The notes under the pieces: model-generated
What the model was told of the DNA's origin: nothing
The model's database searches: none
The model's input: only the letters and a program-made list of their open reading frames with translations
Source: a virus
Direction: 5' to 3' (one strand)
Virus record (IMG/VR): IMGVR_UViG_3300037485_001282
Coordinates: 79,702 to 143,701 of that record
Length of the DNA stretch: 64,000 bases
Shown: positions 38,001 to 48,500 of the stretch, one piece after another
Numbering within the stretch: the stretch's first letter is position 1
Layout: every line of letters begins with the position of its first letter
Program-made: the position numbers and the translations under genes

Positions 38001-39635
38001 ATGCCAATTAGTTACAATGTTAAGGGAATGAAAAGACCAAACGAGGTGACTGAATATACTCCAGAAATGCTTCAGGAGTATGTTAAATGCGCCACCGATA
38101 TTATTTATTTTGCGGAGAATTATTACTATATAACATCTACACATAACAATAAAGGAAAACAGTTAGTTGAATTATATGATTTCCAGAAGGATATTTTACA
38201 TGGATTAGTTAACAACGATCATGTTATTCTTAATGCAGCTAGACAGGTTGGTAAATCTACGTGTTCTTGTATTTTTTTATTGTGGTATGCTTTATTTAAT
38301 AAAGATATTGAAATTGCGATATTGGCTAATAAACAAAGAACAGCAACCGAATTAATGGGTGACGTAAAAAATGCTTATTTGGAGTTACCTAATTGGCTAA
38401 AACCAGCGCCATTGAAATATGATGAACTAAACATTGAATTTGATAGTGGAACTAAAATTATTGCGGCAGCAACATCAAAAGACGCTATACGTGGTAGGTC
38501 CATATCAGCCCTACTAATTGATGAGTTCGCACATTTACCAACCAACATAGCCGAAGAGTTCTGGACTGCTGTTTTGCCAACAATTTCCAACGGTGGTAAG
38601 TGTATAGTTGTATCAACCCCCAACGGCGCTGGTGGATTATTCTACGATCTATGGAGAAAAGCAACACTTAAGATAGAAGATTGTGATTTTATTCCGTTTA
38701 AGGCGCGATGGGATGTAGTTCCTGGTAGAGACGAATCATGGAAGAAGAAAATGATGTCTTCTATGAACTCTATCGTTAAGTTTAATCAGGAATTTGAATG
38801 TAACTTCTCAGGATCTTCCAATACACTTATAGAAGGAAATACGTTGGAACGTTTAGTTTCTCAAGTTCCTTTATTAGTGCCTGAAGAGGGATACAGTATT
38901 TGGAAGGCACCTCAGAGGAATCGAATTTACTTAGCGTCTTGTGACGTTGCTAAAGGTGTTAATAGTGACTTCTCGGTAGTTGACATTTATGATGTTACTA
39001 CTTGGCATGTTAATGGAAGATATGATCAAGTTGCTCAGCTACGAACTAATTCACTTGCGTTACTTCCAGAGTTTAAACCCAAAGTAGTTCAGATTTGTCG
39101 TCAGTGGAATAATTGTGCTCTAATAATCGAGAATAATAACTTAGGCGATGTATTAGCTAAAGCGATTCATGAAGAAGATGAATACGAGAATCTTTATTAT
39201 GACTATGACCGAAAGGAAATAGGAGTAAATGCTAATGTTAAAACGAAACCATTAGCTTGTAGGCACTATAAAGAAGATTTAGAGACTAGCGTATTAACTA
39301 TAAGATCTACTGATACTATAAAGGAACTGGCAACATTCGAAGAAGTAATGAGTGGGGTATTTAAGGCGCGTAAAGGAAACGCTTTTCATGATGATACAGT
39401 AACTGTAGGATATTGGGCTGCTTATTGTTTGAGATCGAAGTGGTGGGAAGATCATTTGCATGATATTAGAAAAAATAGCAAAGTAGCTTTATTAGGAAGT
39501 GGATCTAAGAGTTCTCTGATAAATACTCAAGTTAAGGATCCTGACGAAGAAAGTATGAGTAGATTCATGAATATGTTTGACGACAACTTTGAAGACGAAT
39601 TAAAAGGATTTACTGCTGGTCTTGGGAAATTCTGA
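38001..39635 (+). CDS. gp17: Terminase large subunit (uninterrupted)
   Basis: LYDFQ, AARQVGKS, LIDEFAH, VSTPNG, FNQEFEC, DVAKG, IENN, HDDTV; promoter 37976-37983. Confidence 0.97.
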   Translation: MPISYNVKGMKRPNEVTEYTPEMLQEYVKCATDIIYFAENYYYITSTHNNKGKQLVELYDFQKDILHGLVNNDHVILNAARQVGKSTCSCIFLLWYALFNKDIEIAILANKQRTATELMGDVKNAYLELPNWLKPAPLKYDELNIEFDSGTKIIAAATSKDAIRGRSISALLIDEFAHLPTNIAEEFWTAVLPTISNGGKCIVVSTPNGAGGLFYDLWRKATLKIEDCDFIPFKARWDVVPGRDESWKKKMMSSMNSIVKFNQEFECNFSGSSNTLIEGNTLERLVSQVPLLVPEEGYSIWKAPQRNRIYLASCDVAKGVNSDFSVVDIYDVTTWHVNGRYDQVAQLRTNSLALLPEFKPKVVQICRQWNNCALIIENNNLGDVLAKAIHEEDEYENLYYDYDRKEIGVNANVKTKPLACRHYKEDLETSVLTIRSTDTIKELATFEEVMSGVFKARKGNAFHDDTVTVGYWAAYCLRSKWWEDHLHDIRKNSKVALLGSGSKSSLINTQVKDPDEESMSRFMNMFDDNFEDELKGFTAGLGKF

Positions 39636-39741: not shown

Positions 39742-41745
39742 ATGGCACTTTCACCTGGAATCGAATCGATTGAACGCGATATAACAGTAAGAATTCCAAC
39801 AGTAACATCAAGTGTTGGTGCGATTGTTATTGCTGCTGAGAAGGGTGCTATAAACAAGCCCCTTTTAATTAACGACGAAAAACAATATAGAGAAACTTTT
39901 GGTGAGCCTGATGATGTCAATTATCGTCACTGGTTTACTGGAGCAGCTTTCCTAAAATCGTCTGATCAACTTTGGGTTGTTCGTACTGAAGATAAGACAA
40001 AAATGGTTGCTGGTTTAACTATCGGAACTTCTGGTGGTCTTACTTCTTGTGGAACTCCTCTAATCAGTTCTTACCCAACACCAAAAGCATCCGAATACTT
40101 CCCATTAAGTTACGATAATGTCAGTGACGAGGAAGCAAAAGTTGGATCTGTTCCAGTATTCAATACTGGAAACGGCAAAGAAATTTTCCACATTTATGCT
40201 GTTGGTGCTGGTCCATATTACGAAGGAGTTGAAGTTGTTACAATCAACTCTCTCGACTATAAGACACTTTTAGAACTTAAAGAAGAATATGTTCAAGCCA
40301 CAACTACTCAACAAAAACAAGCAGTTGCTAAGAAATACTACACTGGAACTCCAGCAACTTCTGCTGATGCAATTTGGGCTGGTTCTACTGCCCCAGCATC
40401 TGGCGATGCTTACTACGTTGACAGCGGCAACTATCTTGCTTGCTCATTAATTAAAGACGATGTTATTTCTTCCGAAGTTGTTGATAATCAAGTAGTTTGG
40501 TCAGTTGATACTGGTCTTTTGAATACTTATACTTCATTCTCATTCGGCCCACAAGCAAATTACGACTCAAACACCAGAGTATATAGTAATAGTGATGAGT
40601 TCGCAGTCATGGTATTTGATCCAAACGGCAATCTCGCTGAACAATATATTGTATCAAATGAAATCGATAAGTTAAATGACGCTGGTCAGAAAATGTTCGC
40701 TCCAGATGTAATCAATGAAAGCAGTAACTTCATTTATTTCTTCATCGGTGGGGATCCTTCTGAGGCTGGTGGAATTGAGCCAGTAACAACTGGTAAAGTT
40801 AACTTGGCTGGCGCTGACGCATTAACCACAGACTTGTCACAATTAAGTGGCGAGATCGAAGAACAATGGAGAGAATGGTTTGCTAATAAAGAAACCTATC
40901 AAATCGACTTAACTTTCGATCCCGACTATCCAACTGTTCTCAAACAAGCATTGGACGATATTAGCAAAAATATTCGTAAAGACTGTTTTACCCTTTTGAA
41001 TGTTCCTGAAAGCGTAATGGTAAATACTTCTACTCATCGCCCAATCGCACAATATATTACTTCAATGAAGAACTATGTTGCAAATACTCTTAATATTGAT
41101 TCATCTTACTCAGCAATTTATGGACAATATTTCAAGATTTATGATAGATTCAATGAAAAGAACCGTTGGGTTCCTGTTACTGGATATGTCGCTGCTAATA
41201 TAGCAACTTCGGATTTCAGTACTGCACAATGGAATGCTCCTGCTGGTTTTGCTAGAGGCGTAATTGACGGAATAGTTGATGTTGCAATTACTCCATCCCA
41301 AGCACAGCGCGATGTTATGTACTCAAATAAGATCAATGCTATTGTTAACTTTAATGGTCAAGGCATCGTTATTTGGGGACAAAAGACTATGCAAGGTCGC
41401 CCAAGTGCATTCGATAGAATCAATGTTCGTAGATTGTTCCTACACCTCGAAAGAAGTATCGAAAAGTTAGCTAGATATTTCATCTTCGAAATTAACGACG
41501 AAACCACAAGATCAAGATTCCGTGGAATTGTTAATGGTTTCTTGGCAGAAATCAAATCTCGTAGAGGCGTAACTGATTTCTTAGTAGTTTGTGACTCAAC
41601 TAATAACGGTCCAGATGTTATTGATCGAAATGAATTTGTTGCTGAAATTTTAGTTAAGCCAAGCAGAGCAATCGAATTCGTTAGACTCGTATTTACTGCT
41701 GTTAGTACTGGGGTTAGTTTCTCAGAAGTAGTTGGTAGAGGTTGA
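39742..41745 (+). CDS. gp18: Tail sheath protein
   Basis: LSPGI, WNAPAGFARG, WGQKT, FDRINVRRLF, FEINDETTR, VKPSRAIEFV. Confidence 0.97.
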   Translation: MALSPGIESIERDITVRIPTVTSSVGAIVIAAEKGAINKPLLINDEKQYRETFGEPDDVNYRHWFTGAAFLKSSDQLWVVRTEDKTKMVAGLTIGTSGGLTSCGTPLISSYPTPKASEYFPLSYDNVSDEEAKVGSVPVFNTGNGKEIFHIYAVGAGPYYEGVEVVTINSLDYKTLLELKEEYVQATTTQQKQAVAKKYYTGTPATSADAIWAGSTAPASGDAYYVDSGNYLACSLIKDDVISSEVVDNQVVWSVDTGLLNTYTSFSFGPQANYDSNTRVYSNSDEFAVMVFDPNGNLAEQYIVSNEIDKLNDAGQKMFAPDVINESSNFIYFFIGGDPSEAGGIEPVTTGKVNLAGADALTTDLSQLSGEIEEQWREWFANKETYQIDLTFDPDYPTVLKQALDDISKNIRKDCFTLLNVPESVMVNTSTHRPIAQYITSMKNYVANTLNIDSSYSAIYGQYFKIYDRFNEKNRWVPVTGYVAANIATSDFSTAQWNAPAGFARGVIDGIVDVAITPSQAQRDVMYSNKINAIVNFNGQGIVIWGQKTMQGRPSAFDRINVRRLFLHLERSIEKLARYFIFEINDETTRSRFRGIVNGFLAEIKSRRGVTDFLVVCDSTNNGPDVIDRNEFVAEILVKPSRAIEFVRLVFTAVSTGVSFSEVVGRG

Positions 41746-41788
41746 ATTAGGTAGGTCAGATTAGATTAAATAAACACAGGAGAAAACC

Positions 41789-42451
41789 ATGCCATTCCCA
41801 TCAGACGTAGAATCAATGAATCTTTATAGTTTCCGTCAAACTATTAGAGATGTTAGTCGTCCTTATCTGTTTATGGTCGAGATGCCAAATATTGATACTA
41901 GTGCCGCTAAGTTAACCGCTTTTGCGAGAACTACATCATTACCAAAGTATTCTCTTTCTACAATTGATATTCCGTTTCAATCACAGAAACTTAAATTGGC
42001 TGGTCCAGCTAACATTGAAGGAACTTGGCAGGTTGAGTTTCTCTGTGACGAACTACATACTTTACGAAATAAATTCCTTAGTTGGGCTCAGATTGGGTTC
42101 GATATTCAAAGACTTCAAGCTGGTGCTCCGTCTTCTTATAAGTATGATTTAGCTAAAGTTGTTCAATTAGCTCGTAATGGCGCTAGAATTGCACAATATC
42201 AGTTCGTTGGCCTATTCCCAACTTCAGTTGGTGAAATTCAATTATCACACGAAGAACAAGGTTACGCTAAGTTCCCAGTAGAATTCGCGTATGATTACTA
42301 TACTATCGATCAAGCAAATTCATTTGACGTTAACTCAAGTGCATTCCAAATTGGCGCTACTGGTATTGGTGCTACTACTGACTTGGCTGCATTGGCTGGC
42401 GCAACTAATATCAATGAAGTAACTGGTACTATTGGTAACAACGGGGGCTGA
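41789..42451 (+). CDS. gp19: Tail tube protein 1
   Basis: SRPYLFMVEMP, WQVEFLCD, YQFVGLFPTSVGEIQLSH, FAYDY. Confidence 0.9.
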   Translation: MPFPSDVESMNLYSFRQTIRDVSRPYLFMVEMPNIDTSAAKLTAFARTTSLPKYSLSTIDIPFQSQKLKLAGPANIEGTWQVEFLCDELHTLRNKFLSWAQIGFDIQRLQAGAPSSYKYDLAKVVQLARNGARIAQYQFVGLFPTSVGEIQLSHEEQGYAKFPVEFAYDYYTIDQANSFDVNSSAFQIGATGIGATTDLAALAGATNINEVTGTIGNNGG

Positions 42452-42473
42452 GATTAATTTTTAAGATCGATTT

Positions 42474-42514
42474 ATTAGCCCTAGATCGAATTAAACGATC
42501 TGGGGCTAATTTTT
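42474..42514 (+). terminator. Hairpin/terminator between the two tail tube genes
   Basis: ATTAGCCCTAGATCG-7 nt-CGATCTGGGGCTAAT + TTTT. Confidence 0.75.
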
Positions 42515-42523
42515 AAGGAAAAA

Positions 42524-43234
42524 ATGCCATTCCCATCTAATAATCTTTACAATAAAGATAACGACATGAATCTTCTTGATTTCAGGAAGATAATTAATGA
42601 CGTTTCTAGATCTTATTTGTTTATGTTGGAGATGCCGAACATCGATACCGATGCGAGAAAATTAACATCATTCGCTAGATCAACGACAATGCCTGGATAT
42701 AATATCGAAGAAACTTCTTTTAAATTTCAAACAGCTACAATAAAACTAGGCTATGGGGCTACTTTTAATGATTGGACCGTTGAATTTTTAAACGATCAAG
42801 TTTATTCTTTAAGAAGTAAATTTTTGGCTTGGATGTCGCAAATATATGATCCAGTTAGAGTTATGTCAATGTCAGCCAATTCCTATAAGTATGATGGTGT
42901 TAAAATTCATCAATTATCTAGAACTGGGAAAAAAGTTCAAACATGTCAATTTGTTGGGCTATTTCCTAAATCAATATCAGATATTAACTTAAAACACGAT
43001 GCGACTGAATTGCAGACATTTACGGTTAATTTCGCTTATGATTATTTTACTATTGATTCTGGAAACCCTCTGGAAGCGACAATAGACCTCGCTACAGGAA
43101 ATACGGACGGAAATGGTATAGGATTGAGTGGGATCGTGGGAAGAGCGCCAGCAGCGGGAACTCCGCAAAATAACGTAGCTGGAGTATTTGATGTATATGG
43201 TGGAATGAAGAAAGCAAAATCCGCATTAATATAA
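42524..43234 (+). CDS. gp19: Tail tube protein 2 (paralog)
   Basis: Aligns end to end with 41789..42451 (MPFPS, SR.YLFM.EMPNIDT, QFVGLFP, FAYDY). Confidence 0.88.
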   Translation: MPFPSNNLYNKDNDMNLLDFRKIINDVSRSYLFMLEMPNIDTDARKLTSFARSTTMPGYNIEETSFKFQTATIKLGYGATFNDWTVEFLNDQVYSLRSKFLAWMSQIYDPVRVMSMSANSYKYDGVKIHQLSRTGKKVQTCQFVGLFPKSISDINLKHDATELQTFTVNFAYDYFTIDSGNPLEATIDLATGNTDGNGIGLSGIVGRAPAAGTPQNNVAGVFDVYGGMKKAKSALI

Positions 43235-43285
43235 AAAATATCTTTTATATTGTCAATAAAATTTAGTTTATGATATAATATTACC

Positions 43286-44416
43286 ATGAACCTGACCATT
43301 AAATGTAAACTATTAGCTAACCAAGAACAACATCAGCAATTGCGGGACGTAATGATAGCATTTAATAATGCTTGTAACTGGGTTAGTGAAGTTTGTTTTA
43401 ATAAAAAGATTTTTAATAAGTTCGGACTACATAAAGAAGTTTATTACGAAACAAGACAGCGTTTTAATCTTTCTAGTCAGATGGTTATTCGAGTAATAGG
43501 CAAAGTAGCGGATAGTTATAAAGATTTTAAAAAGCGAGAAACCCAGCACGAATTTAAAGATTTAGGGGCAATCGATTACGACGAAAGAAATTTCGGAGTC
43601 AAAAAAGATGGAATTTCTATTTCTATCTTAGGTGGAAGAACAATAATGGATTATCGTTCAAGAAAACCTCTCTCAGAATACAAAATTTGTAGCCAGTGCA
43701 AACTATCCTATGATAAGCCAAAGAACAAGTTTTATGTTTTGTTGTCGGTTGAAGAGATGGAACCAGTTCCAGATAAAGTTGAAAATTTTATTGGTGTTGA
43801 TATGGGAATTGTTAAGTTGGCAACTTGTTCTGATGGAGAAATTTTTACTGGTGAAGCAGTTGAGAATCATAGAGTTAAACTAACATTATTAAAGACGAAA
43901 TTGCAGAGTAAGGGAAGTAAGTCAGCGAAACGGCATTTAAAAAAGATTTCGAGAAAAGAAGGAAGGTTTAAGAGAGATGTAAATCATTGTATTAGCAAGA
44001 AGATAGTAAAGAAAGCAAAGGCACTTGGCGTCGGGGTAAAGATCGAAGATCTTTCTTTTGACAACAAAGAACCAGTTATGAAGTTTAACCAGAAACAGCG
44101 TGATAATAACGCTAAGATGGGTAAATGGGCTTTCGGTCAATTGACCAACTATCTTGGGTATAAGGGGAAAAGAGCAGGAGTTCCTGTTTTGTTTGTTAAT
44201 CCCGCTTATACTTCGCAAAAATGCAGCAAGTGTGGACATACTGAAGAAGATAACCGTCTGTCCCAATCTGAATTCTGTTGTATATCCTGTGGATACAAAG
44301 AAAACGCAGATATTAATGCTGCAATTAATATTTCTCGGGCTGCCGTCAACCAGCCTATTGTAGCCACTAGAAAAAGTGCGTTACAAGCCCCGCTATTAAT
44401 TGGTGTGGGTAGTTGA
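43286..44416 (+). CDS. tnpB: RNA-guided endonuclease TnpB (IS200/IS605 family), no tnpA
   Basis: RuvC I GVDMG, RuvC II IEDL, zinc finger YTSQKCSKCG...CISCG, RuvC III NADINAAINI; TG-TATAAT promoter at 43271-43279. Confidence 0.95.
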   Translation: MNLTIKCKLLANQEQHQQLRDVMIAFNNACNWVSEVCFNKKIFNKFGLHKEVYYETRQRFNLSSQMVIRVIGKVADSYKDFKKRETQHEFKDLGAIDYDERNFGVKKDGISISILGGRTIMDYRSRKPLSEYKICSQCKLSYDKPKNKFYVLLSVEEMEPVPDKVENFIGVDMGIVKLATCSDGEIFTGEAVENHRVKLTLLKTKLQSKGSKSAKRHLKKISRKEGRFKRDVNHCISKKIVKKAKALGVGVKIEDLSFDNKEPVMKFNQKQRDNNAKMGKWAFGQLTNYLGYKGKRAGVPVLFVNPAYTSQKCSKCGHTEEDNRLSQSEFCCISCGYKENADINAAINISRAAVNQPIVATRKSALQAPLLIGVGS

Positions 44417-44433
44417 CGATCGAGATGCCAAAA
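44290..44433 (+). ncRNA. Predicted omega/reRNA: right-end scaffold plus guide at 44418-44432 (5' boundary uncertain)
   Basis: IS605-type right end AAGCCCCGCTATTAATTGGTGTGGGTAGTTGAC ending 44417; GTCAAC (44345-44350) complementary to GTTGAC (44412-44417). Confidence 0.7.
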
Positions 44434-44467
44434 GATTAAAGACAAAAACCAACAAGGAGACATTCAA

Positions 44468-45265
44468 ATGTCAGATCGACCAACTTTTTCAGCTAGTGAC
44501 TTAAAGAAACTATTAGCTACTAAATCTTCCCCAGAGAATGTAGTAAAACTATGCTACAGTCAAAGAGAAGTTTATATTAAGCCAATTAAGATTAAGGATA
44601 AGAAAGAAATCTTAAAGTCCATTGAAACTAAGAATGAAGTAGTTATCAATAAAGCCTTTGATGATATTTTGGAAAAATTCGTAGAAGCCGTAGATGGTCA
44701 AGAGTTTACTATTGGTGAACTTACGACTCAGGAACGTCAGCAACTTTTAGTTCATATTAAAGTCGCCGCTTCGGGAACTAACGCTAATATTATGCACGAA
44801 TGTCCAGCATGTGGCGACGTTAATCAGAATATTAAATATGATTTATCAAAAATGTACGTGAAGAACTACGTGAAGCCAGAAACTGGAGAAGAGATAATTA
44901 TTTCCACTCTCTCAGGAACCATTAAGGTTAAATTAGGTCCAGTTACAAGAAATAAAGAAATTGAGATTGAAAACTATATTAAGCGAAACAAGATAACGCA
45001 AACAACCGAAAAGAACTTCGTCATGATGGCTGCTGCTATTAAATCAATTTCTATTGTTCAGGATGATATAGAGAATGAAGTTAGCATGAGTATGGCGGAA
45101 TTAATTGATATTTTCGATAGTTTACCAGAGAATGAACTTGAGAAAATAATGAATTATTTCAAGTCTTCTGACTTCGGAGCAAAAATGCCGTTTGATTTTA
45201 AGTGTCAAAAATGTGGACACGAATCAGAACAAGAGGTCAACGTTATAGCTTTTTTTATCAATTGA
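44468..45265 (+). CDS. gp26: Baseplate hub assembly protein
   Basis: YIKPIKIKDKKEIL, CPACG, CQKCG; ends ...FFIN. Confidence 0.78.
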   Translation: MSDRPTFSASDLKKLLATKSSPENVVKLCYSQREVYIKPIKIKDKKEILKSIETKNEVVINKAFDDILEKFVEAVDGQEFTIGELTTQERQQLLVHIKVAASGTNANIMHECPACGDVNQNIKYDLSKMYVKNYVKPETGEEIIISTLSGTIKVKLGPVTRNKEIEIENYIKRNKITQTTEKNFVMMAAAIKSISIVQDDIENEVSMSMAELIDIFDSLPENELEKIMNYFKSSDFGAKMPFDFKCQKCGHESEQEVNVIAFFIN

Positions 45266-45543
45266 TGCTAATGAACTCCTGTTACCAGCAGGAGCTTAAT
45301 TATGAAATAGAGTTACTCTGTTGGGGTGATAAGTTATTTACTTACTCCGAAGTAGAAAATCTAGATACTCATGAGTTTGAAGTGTTTAGGACTATCTTTA
45401 AGGAAAAAGCAGAGTCAGAAGCTAAAGCCAAGCAAGAGTTCATTAAAAATACTTTTGAATTTGCTAGAAAATGCGTAGAAGTCATTTGTAAAACTATTTC
45501 AGGTGCGTTCGGAACAAAAACGACTTCTAATAAAGTTAATTGA
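45265..45543 (+). CDS. Baseplate hub assembly protein (gp51-like)
   Basis: TGATG coupling with gp26; FTYSEVENL..HEFEVF. Confidence 0.6.
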   Translation: MLMNSCYQQELNYEIELLCWGDKLFTYSEVENLDTHEFEVFRTIFKEKAESEAKAKQEFIKNTFEFARKCVEVICKTISGAFGTKTTSNKVN

Positions 45544-45571
45544 TTTTTAATTTTTATAAATAAAGATAATT

Positions 45572-48500
45572 ATGGCTTCAAATTTCACCACAGATCAACT
45601 TAAAAAGATGCTTCAAGAGAACCAAGCGAAATTGGATTCTCTTGACTCATCTGATATAGTTGCTTCTAAGGAACTAAAAAAGTCTATTGATAAGATCTCT
45701 AAGTTACTTTTAAGGACCGAGAAAGGTATCTTAAAGGAACTTAAAGAATCTAATAAAAAGAATCAAAAGAAAAAAGATGACTCAGTAGATATTAAACGTT
45801 TAGCCGAAGAAAATAAAAAGGATCTTAAGAATAGGTTTTCTGAGTTTTATCAGAGAAATCAATTAAATAGAAAAGCTATCAACGATTCATATATTAGAAA
45901 AATCGACGATATAAATCATAGATATAAAAAGGATCTTAGAAAAGCGTTTTCTACTTTAAATGAAAATTTGCACGCAGATATTTTAGTAAATCAGAAAGTT
46001 ATTGAAAAATATCTTAATAGATTTGCTGACTATATGACCGAAAAAATAACGAAAGTATTTAATGTTGCTTTTAGTTATTTAAAAAACGCTACATTAAACG
46101 CTTTTAGTAAAATTAAAGGATTAGTCACATCATTAGGAGATAAGTTAGGTTCTGTTATTAAAGGTACTTGGGAGAAACTTAAAGGAGCTATATTTCATCC
46201 AATTGATTCAGTTAAGACTATAATTAGTAACTCTTTAAGTTATGTTTGGCAAGGTATAAAGAAAATAGGATCATTAATAAAAGATGCTTTCGTGTTTGTG
46301 ATAAAGAAAATTTGGGAAGGACTTAAATGGGTAGCTGGGGTTATTTGGGGAGTTATTAAAATTGGATTTAAATTAATGTGGACTATATTATCTGGTATTG
46401 GAAAATTCGTATTCTCCATGTTTAAGTGGATAAGCACATTTTTACTAAAGGTTATATGGGGAACTTTGGTTAAGATAACATCCTTTTTATTGTCTGCTAT
46501 TTGGGAAGGAATTAAAACAGTAGGTTCTTTTTTAATGTCTGTTATGTGGGCGACTATAAAAGGAATCGCTAAAACCGTTTTCCAAATAGCTTTTACAATA
46601 GTTAAAACAATTGCCAATATGGTAGTGACGTTAATTACATCGGCATTAGCTCCTTGGTTGGGGCTAATAGCTCTTGTAGGTGCTGGTGTTTACCTTTTAG
46701 GTTACTGGATGGGTTGGTGGGGTAGCAAGGGAAACAGTGAAACATCGAAAGCAGGAATTAATGTTGGTGGAAAAGAAATAAAACAAGGTGGAATATTTGA
46801 AACTATTGGAAATTGGGTTAAGAAAGCACTGGGGATAGGTGAGTCTTTTGCTGTTTGGTTATGTGATCAAATAGTATGGGCTTGGGATAAACTGTGGGTG
46901 GTTATTAAGAAGACGTGGGGGATTACCACTGACTTTGGTGGTTGGATTCTTGATCAGCTTAAGATTTTTTGGAACTGGGCAACATCAAAAGAAAAAAGAG
47001 ACGATTATAGACTTTTTGAAAAAAATATTGAGTTTTATGAAAAACAATTAGAAAACTTAATGATGCTAGATCCAGACAAGATAAAGGAATATACAGAAAA
47101 CCTAAAAGCTGATAAAGTTTCATTAGAAAAACTATCAGACACAATGCCTTTATTATCTAAGCTCATTATAAAAATAGAAGATATGTGGACGAAGTATATT
47201 AAACCAATAATCAATGATGTAATTAAAAAGATAGAATCGGCGTGGGAGTGGATAAGTAGTTTAGTAAAAGGAAAAGGTAGTTGGTCTTCGCCCGATGAAA
47301 ATAGTATATTGGGGTCTATATATAAATCATTATTTGGAACAAATTCAATTAACTGGGCGTCTCCGTCATATGATAGTTTATTGGGTCAAATTTATAACAT
47401 AATATTTGGTAAAAACACTATTGATTTTAAATCAAGTCTGGGATTAGTTGGGTTTATATATAGCACAATATATGATATTAATTTCTTTATTATAGATTCG
47501 ATAGAAAAATACATACTTCCTGTTTTTAATTCGATAATGGATTTTCTTTCTAATATCATAGAAATCATTAGTCCAGATTATGCTGAAAAAGTTAGTCAAA
47601 TTTCTGGTTCGGTTAAATTAAATATATCTAATAGAGTTTCTGAAGCTAAAGGATTTCAATTAACAAACACCAAAGAAAAAATATCCGAGTTATCCGAATC
47701 CATAAAATCGCCAAGTAACGGTGAGTCAAAAGAACATTTTGAAAAAAGAAAAGAAGAAACAGAAAAACTAATAAAGGCATTGGAATCTAAAGTTGGCGGA
47801 AGGGAAAAATCAGATAACGAAAAGAAGCGAGCGGAGAAATCATTTGCTATTGCGTTAAGAAACACCACAAAAGTACTATCTGGATTACAAGTTTCGGTAA
47901 GTTCTTTATTAGGATCTACGTTAGACGAAAATCAAATTAAGGCGTTATCGAATAGACCAAGAAATTTTTGGAAAAGTAGGGGATTTGATACTGATTTTGT
48001 AAATACTCCATTAGATGCTTATTCAGAGTTGAGAGATTTATATTTAGCTAAGGATAAAAGTTACTATGGTAAAAACCTAAAAAACCTTCAAGCGGATTTT
48101 AATAAAAACAATCCAGATTGGAAAAAGTATATAGACAAAGATTTAATTGGAAAATTAAATACTATGCGGTCTAGTATAGACGAAAACAGATTACAAATTC
48201 AAGAATCACTAGATAATATGTATGAACAGAAGGCATCTAGTTTGGCTACTGGGTGGAGTTTTGGAAAAAAAGAATTAAATTGGTATAAAAAAGACGCCGA
48301 AAAATATATGGATGAAAATTTATATAAAATATTTACTGGTGACGCATTTAATTCTTATTTAAATCCGATGTCAAGATTTTTTACTAAGATACGAGAAATC
48401 GATCCTCAGTACGGATTAGCTAGAGGCGGTATAGTTAAACCACAACCACATGGAGTTAACATTATAGCTGCTGAGGCAGGTTCTCCAGAGGTAATATTGC

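Follow-up and report, generated by a model that had tools for sequence, protein, structure and literature searches.

A TnpB element stranded among the tail genes of a T4-like phage, with a guide that is probably the remnant of a third tail-tube paralog

A tnpB gene lies among the tail genes of a virus whose genome is the 143.7-kb IMG/VR record IMGVR_UViG_3300037485_001282 (completeness estimate 79%), and the DNA just 3' of this gene, where a TnpB nuclease takes its guide, resembles the two tail-tube genes upstream. We analysed it in a stretch of 64,000 nucleotides (nt), positions 79702-143701 of the record, hereafter the window. A first-pass annotation had read the resemblance as a TnpB re-aimed at the neighbouring tube gene, gp19, of competing phages. 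The anatomy behind this reading holds—an intact TnpB, a guide starting at 44418, neither TnpA nor left end, a T-rich motif 5' of the matching sites. The re-aiming does not: relatives carry a homologous tube paralog at this very position, and the flank of the element is colinear with the 3' end of that gene. We consider it probable that a transposase-less IS200/IS605-type element, encoding TnpB and its guide RNA (omega RNA), inserted in a dispensable third tube paralog, and that the guide is leftover DNA of this paralog. Under either of the entry histories weighed below, sequence comparison makes the guide an in-situ flank of the insertion site, not an acquired spacer.

Megablast of positions 41000-46000 gave zero matches among GenBank phages, and so did a single-sequence scan of IMG/VR with the baseplate protein. 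Close relatives, L169 to L174, were reached via baseplate-protein homologues; they share 94% identity with the window in this protein and about 84-90% in DNA over aligned blocks. In all of them the interval from tube gene 2 to the baseplate gene is occupied by an open reading frame of 160 residues. This frame has zero Pfam matches, and aligns with tube 2 over 160 residues at 31% identity (E 5e-24), which clearly points to a third tail-tube paralog (paralog 3). Its N-terminal motif YLFMV(E/D)MPK is encoded as TTTAT followed by a match to the guide at 11-12 of 15 positions. The first-pass annotation had held that ordinary insertion-sequence behaviour would show as a relative carrying the 5' motif plus the guide sequence at this position; with TTTAT and a 12/15 match there, relatives show it in substance, in homologous and not in exact form.

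No intact paralog 3 was found in the window's genome. On the left of tnpB, positions 43235-43265 align with the relatives' intergenic region upstream of paralog 3; on the right, the window aligns from 44442 onward with the last codons of paralog 3 and the baseplate ribosome site. In another relative, L195, which has almost the same baseplate start as the window, the colinearity with the 3' end of paralog 3 covers 44418-44470 (53 nt, through the baseplate ATG). Since tnpB stands at the place of paralog 3 and its flank is colinear with the end of that gene, the 3' DNA would be the remainder of a destroyed gene. The loss seems tolerable: L175 and L187, which are more distant relatives, lack paralog 3 as well as tnpB at the site, so that paralog 3 appears dispensable.

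As first described, positions 44418-44432 match tube gene 1 (41875-41889) at 14 of 15 positions, the sole mismatch being at position 2, and tube gene 2 (42625-42639) at 12 of 15, with three mismatches; TTTAT stands directly 5' of both sites. The guide resembles tube genes 1 and 2 because the three paralogs share the motif. Directly 5' of this motif, TT[T/C]AT was present in all 12 alleles examined across the three paralogs, the TTCAT variant being that of tube gene 1 of L171. At base 16 the guide has A, in agreement with the Lys codon that L169 and L172 have there in paralog 3; tube genes 1 and 2 have Asn at this codon and do not fit, and Asn also stands in the paralog-3 allele of L195.

Could an arbitrary flank match a tube gene by pure coincidence? 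In the whole genome the tube gene 1 site is the only other site with at most two mismatches to the guide. From base composition, the expected number of chance matches with at most one mismatch is 0.0036 per window—close to the ~0.005 first proposed—and 0.0078 per genome, and it falls to about 1e-4 if a TAM-like 5-mer (TAM, target-adjacent motif) is also demanded. Certainly very many windows were scanned, and a 0.004 event will turn up somewhere. However the site is the exact location of a tube paralog with the same motif in relatives, a TAM-like flank is present, and none of 57 other TnpB-family guides taken as control matches with at most one mismatch within ±5 kb of its own locus. Coincidence is thus extremely improbable.

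The boundary between element and guide (...TAGTTGAC / guide) is fixed by more than 100 TnpB-family loci, which share the terminus (consensus ...CAAG-CCC(n)CTTTAG(n)GGG-TAGTTGA[C/T]) and diverge completely beyond it; the guide start at 44418, previously assumed, is therefore correct. The same TnpB clade (about 90% nucleotide identity) occurs at four other sites, and another copy of the protein, P0001, is 95% identical. The guides of the sister copies at the four sites are unrelated to that of the window, at odds with the expectation that homologous loci would keep a guide matching gp19. In L169 and L170 a 93%-identical TnpB sits between the terminase and sheath genes, where the window is empty; comparison of the L169 insertion with this empty site places the left end directly after TTCAT. 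A copy in L190 and L191, about 90% identical in DNA and with its left-end hairpin intact, also lies behind TTCAT, and more distant family members follow TTCAT, TCAA or TTCAC. For the copy of L186, no counterpart of the flank was found in the window's genome. From the sister insertions, where readable, the TAM of the window's TnpB is TTCAT. This replaces the TTTAT first taken as TAM, which is the motif carried by both self sites. The distribution of the copies indicates that the element was mobile very recently in this phage population.

Anatomy, homology, sister copies and TAM are directly observed; from them we infer an order of events. The element would have inserted at TT[C/T]AT within the YLFM/xEMP motif of paralog 3, its most likely entry point; a TTC codon for the Phe of YLFM creates the TTCAT TAM, as in tube gene 1 of L171. 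The left end of the element would then have been deleted along with the 5' part of paralog 3. In a third step the interior of the paralog would have been lost, probably by deletion between imperfect repeats: the motif itself and a look-alike 9-mer near the gene end. In L195 this 9-mer equals the first 9 bases of the guide; next to it comes TT-AAAA, against GCC-AAAA in the motif. Beyond the right end this should leave 15-16 nt of motif joined to the last ~35 nt of paralog 3. Such a deletion would end the similarity to tube genes after about one guide length, with no need for selection.

Several observations weigh against this history. Among the relatives read, none has the element at this site with both flanks intact. 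The relatives' gene at the site has TTTAT and the motif at 11-12/15, the exact ancestral allele was not found, and the known paralog-3 alleles are thus below the 14/15 of the phage's own tube gene 1. The ancestor needs an Ile/ATC allele, which relatives show in their tube genes but not in paralog 3. Finally, the 9-mer at the colinear 3' position of the L195 allele is identical to the start of the flank, which allows a simpler history with one deletion.

In that shorter history the same element entered the same gene, paralog 3, but at its 3' end; the flank is simply the last ~50 nt of the gene without interruption, and the 14/15 match to tube gene 1 is largely luck. A single left-hand deletion then suffices, the colinearity of 44418-44470 with the L195 3' end and the identity of its first 9 nt are directly explained, and the distances of the 9-mer from the ribosome site are similar, 33 versus 36 nt. 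On the other hand the L195 3' end matches the tube-1 motif at 11/15 only, and the three extra matches of the guide (GCC versus TT in L195) would arise by chance about once in 64. Besides, the 5 nt before the 9-mer are TATTT in L195 and CGTGG in L169, neither of them like TTCAT, whereas at the motif a TAM-like flank is present in 12 of 12 alleles. We therefore hold entry at the 3' end to be unlikely, and favor insertion within the motif.

What then of a TnpB domesticated as a free-standing RNA-guided nuclease for homing or exclusion, directed against the gp19 of competitors with seed mismatches protecting self? In its favor, nuclease and RNA scaffold persist although the left end is gone, and the guide falls within the most conserved tube motif. 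In L171 and L172, relatives devoid of tnpB, tube gene 1 has TTCAT and agrees with the guide at 11 of its first 12 bases; tube 1 of L175 matches it at 14/15. Nevertheless the origin of the guide can be explained in situ without any re-aiming, and at base 16 the guide agrees with paralog 3 of L169 and L172 but not with gp19. The unrelated guides of sister copies also imply that tube targeting is not conserved, exact scans of IMG/VR found no tube gene with a TAM and a perfect 12-mer, and purifying selection is equally expected of a recently mobile element. This makes such a domestication improbable. Indeed, with ~90%-identical copies at 5 loci bearing unrelated guides, the gene does not belong with domesticated TnpBs, TldR-like or otherwise exapted.

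The protein itself belongs by its domains and catalytic residues to the OMEGA nucleases, the TnpBs of IS200/IS605 elements. Of the Pfam families typical of this group, OrfB_IS605 and the Cas12f1-like TNB domain, it has both, with matches to PF07282 (3.5e-24) and PF01385 (2e-12); the three RuvC acidic residues D172, E254 and D342—already recognised as intact—and the cysteines of the C-terminal zinc finger, C313, C316, C332 and C335 are invariant across 42 homologues and all present here. The gene is the sole tnpB of the 143.7-kb genome, and tblastn of TnpB against phages gave a best identity of at most 43%. Compared with the sister copies its ratio of non-synonymous to synonymous substitution rates (dN/dS) is 0.05-0.10, i.e. 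under strong purifying selection.

Upstream of the guide, RNAalifold predicted 20 base pairs forming three helices from 35 family members, with compensatory changes in 16 of the 20; the analysis took in the last 150 nt only, so that it covers the 3' part of the scaffold. Rfam searched at a permissive E-value over 42900-44700 returned noise only, with no family matched. In the subterminal right-end hairpin, 8 of the 12 central bases differ from those of the sister copies, yet the 9-bp stem is the same: the predicted dot-bracket is identical in the window, L188, L169 and L186, with changes from C-G to A-U and G-U. These data point to a structured scaffold that overlaps the 3' end of tnpB and ends at the right end. 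The kept nuclease and scaffold are compatible with a working TnpB-RNA complex, and equally with a recently stranded one.

The left side of the element is different. The left-end hairpin of relatives (GGCAAGG...CCC/GGG...) is missing from the window copy, and the genome, which is 79% complete, has zero PF01797 matches, i.e. no Y1 transposase TnpA—both as noted at first reading. With the left end deleted and TnpA absent, the element should be beyond excision or re-insertion by TnpA, and by its sequence is not an autonomous or mobilisable IS200/IS605 element. The 15 nt directly upstream of the tnpB ATG are common to the window and the L169 sister copy, and the left breakpoint is bounded to 43259-43271; within this interval it is ambiguous because a TGATATAAT box is found both in the native phage promoter and in the element. 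A MAFFT alignment of a TnpB-less composite with the relatives was uninformative for the left junction.

A TTTAT at 43243-43247 was considered as a remnant of the TAM, and rejected: this stretch aligns with the native intergenic region of the relatives. The promoters upstream of tnpB differ among sisters, L188 (2600-2644) and L190 (2532-2576) having a TATAAATA box of the T4 late type. The window (43266-43285) and the minus strand of L169 (1702-1716) share a TG-TATAAT just 6 nt upstream of the ATG; a ribosome site is absent, and their tnpB mRNA is possibly leaderless.

In TnpB targeting, the ~12 nt proximal to the TAM are critical. Exact scans of IMG/VR for TTTAT or TTCAT followed by the first 12 guide bases returned 12 matches, none of them in a tube gene. 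A scan for the junction of right end and guide gave zero matches. The three sampled paralog-3 alleles have TTTAT and 3-4 mismatches to the guide, and the nearest real candidate target is tube gene 1 of L171 and L172 (TTCAT, 11 of the first 12 bases). More generally, the best candidates in relatives carry TTTAT in place of TTCAT, at least one mismatch within the first 12 nt, or both. The TTTAT flank and the mismatch at position 2 should protect the tube genes of the phage itself. If expressed, the complex would cut only one kind of target: in a co-infecting relative, an allele of paralog-3 type that is unbroken and has TTCAT followed by 12-16 matching nt. Repair of a break in this cognate allele from the window's genome would copy the cassette, a process called transposon non-restorative homing.

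Such a homing-type or competitive role between co-infecting phages is possible but unsupported, and we doubt that the stranded TnpB-RNA is still active as an RNA-guided gene drive between them. If it were, its targets would be relatives with paralog 3 unbroken, or with TTCAT upstream of the Ile allele in a tube gene (compare tube 1 of L171), and repair from the window's genome would spread the tnpB cassette with the linked tail genes. As TAM and seed lie in the tube motif that is conserved most, a single guide might reach three paralogous genes of rival phages.

The TnpB complex cleaves DNA that has the TAM followed by a match to the guide (Karvelis 2021, PMC8612924; Meers 2023, PMC10055086). 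The window copy shares with the ISDra2-type TnpB of IS200/IS605 elements, described in the same papers, the RuvC and zinc-finger residues, the scaffold in the 3' end of the gene, the guide taken from DNA just 3' of the right end and probably corresponding to the uninterrupted insertion site, and a 5' TAM that is the target motif of the transposon. Unlike them, it sits in a lytic-type T4-like phage without TnpA in the genome and with its left end deleted, and its probable insertion target is a paralog of its neighbours, which creates near-targets in cis. Solo tnpBs without transposase (IS1341-type, PATE-like; PMC13565253) are likewise independent of TnpA, and their nuclease could copy the element into homologous DNA without it. 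For non-restorative homing, this review names co-infected phages as theoretical targets; the case of phages is thus theoretical, and among the three paralog-3 alleles sampled here no sensitive one was found.

Two other systems are close in appearance. The free-standing homing endonucleases SegF, SegG and MobE of T-even phages (intronless homing, PMC155333) share with the window copy a position between conserved structural genes and, as possible target, a conserved sequence of the neighbourhood in relatives. The window system, known from sequence, would differ from them in using RNA for recognition, and in telling self from non-self by the presence or absence of the insertion (and the TAM) instead of substitutions. 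TldRs, the nuclease-dead TnpB repressors of prophages (PMC10705468), are phage-borne relatives of TnpB with a fixed guide matching a gene. However they have lost the RuvC residues and their guide is conserved across homologues, whereas here RuvC is intact and the sister guides are unrelated.

A guide may thus match a neighbouring gene strikingly well without re-aiming, when a mobile element destroys a paralog and the leftover flank mimics the survivors. This makes the locus a useful control case for searches for domesticated or retargeted TnpBs. The phage lineage is also a good natural TnpB system, with one clade (about 90% nucleotide identity) at no less than 5 sites in closely related lytic-type phages, some copies with intact ends and others stranded, and empty sites for comparison; homing driven by TnpB between co-infecting phages becomes directly testable in it.

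The features of the region are collected in Table 1. The order of tail and packaging genes is T4-like, and the phage is of the T4-like, lytic type.

Table 1. Position of the genes, sites and predicted elements around tnpB (coordinates of the window)
Feature	Position	Strand	Remarks
Large terminase	38001-39635		
Sheath gene	39742-41745		
Tail-tube gene 1, 220 aa	41789-42451	+	Weak PF06841; orthologues of relatives match PF23849 Phage_TTP_2
Guide-like site in tail-tube gene 1	41870-41889	+	TTTAT + 14/15
Tail-tube gene 2, 236 aa	42524-43234	+	
Guide-like site in tail-tube gene 2	42620-42639	+	TTTAT + 12/15
Remnant of the native intergenic/promoter region preceding the third tube paralog in relatives	43235-43265	+	blastn alignment with L169 reaches 43265
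Predicted sigma-70-like promoter	43250-43279	+	TTGTCA-18 nt-TG-TATAAT, 11/12; stops 6 nt upstream of tnpB ATG
tnpB, 376 aa	43286-44416	+	RuvC D172/E254/D342; zinc finger C313/C316/C332/C335; dN/dS of this copy versus sister copies 0.05-0.07
Predicted guide-RNA (omega RNA) scaffold, 3' part, inside tnpB end	44354-44417	+	3 helices with covariation
Subterminal right-end hairpin	44387-44410	+	9-bp stem
Guide, ~16 nt	44418-44433	+	Probable leftover of the conserved motif of a lost third tube paralog
Right end to baseplate gene	44418-44467	+	Colinear with last ~50 nt of paralog 3 (L195, L169, L172), baseplate ribosome site included
Baseplate gene (PF12322)	44468-45265	+	Conserved right-hand neighbour

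In L169 (5505-5535 and 5985-6015, and the same in L172-L174) the starts of paralog 3 and of the baseplate gene are near-identical over ~25 nt (AAGGAGACA...ATGTCTGATC). This direct repeat could permit a clean deletion of the paralog. The baseplate ribosome site of the window resembles the paralog-type copy of the repeat.

The sister TnpB of L169 (300-1870, minus strand; also in L170) lies within a leftover terminase 3' end, whose empty counterpart is at 39544-39572 in the window. There the terminase 3' end includes, at 39565-39572, a TTCATGAA palindrome which has the TnpB TAM on both strands and is the spot of the L169 insertion. In the window the TAM is followed by 24 nt which are absent beside the right end of the L169 copy. 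The terminase of L169 has a strongly diverged replacement C-terminus from ...HDIR onward, and its original 3' end persists as two untranslated pieces flanking the element, a layout that resembles a gene-restoring homing cassette. Further sites of the clade, with unrelated guides, are found in L186 (684-720), L188 (3769-3800) and L190 (3701-3730).

About 0.9 kb from the sister copy, L190 (210-1690) and L191 (2634-4114) carry a complete IS200/IS605 unit, made of a Y1 TnpA and a different TnpB bearing a helix-turn-helix; this unit is a possible source of transposase in trans. Another relative, L009, carries a 67%-identical TnpB and, about 4 kb off, an IS607-type pair (a serine resolvase and another TnpB; L009 6248-8072).

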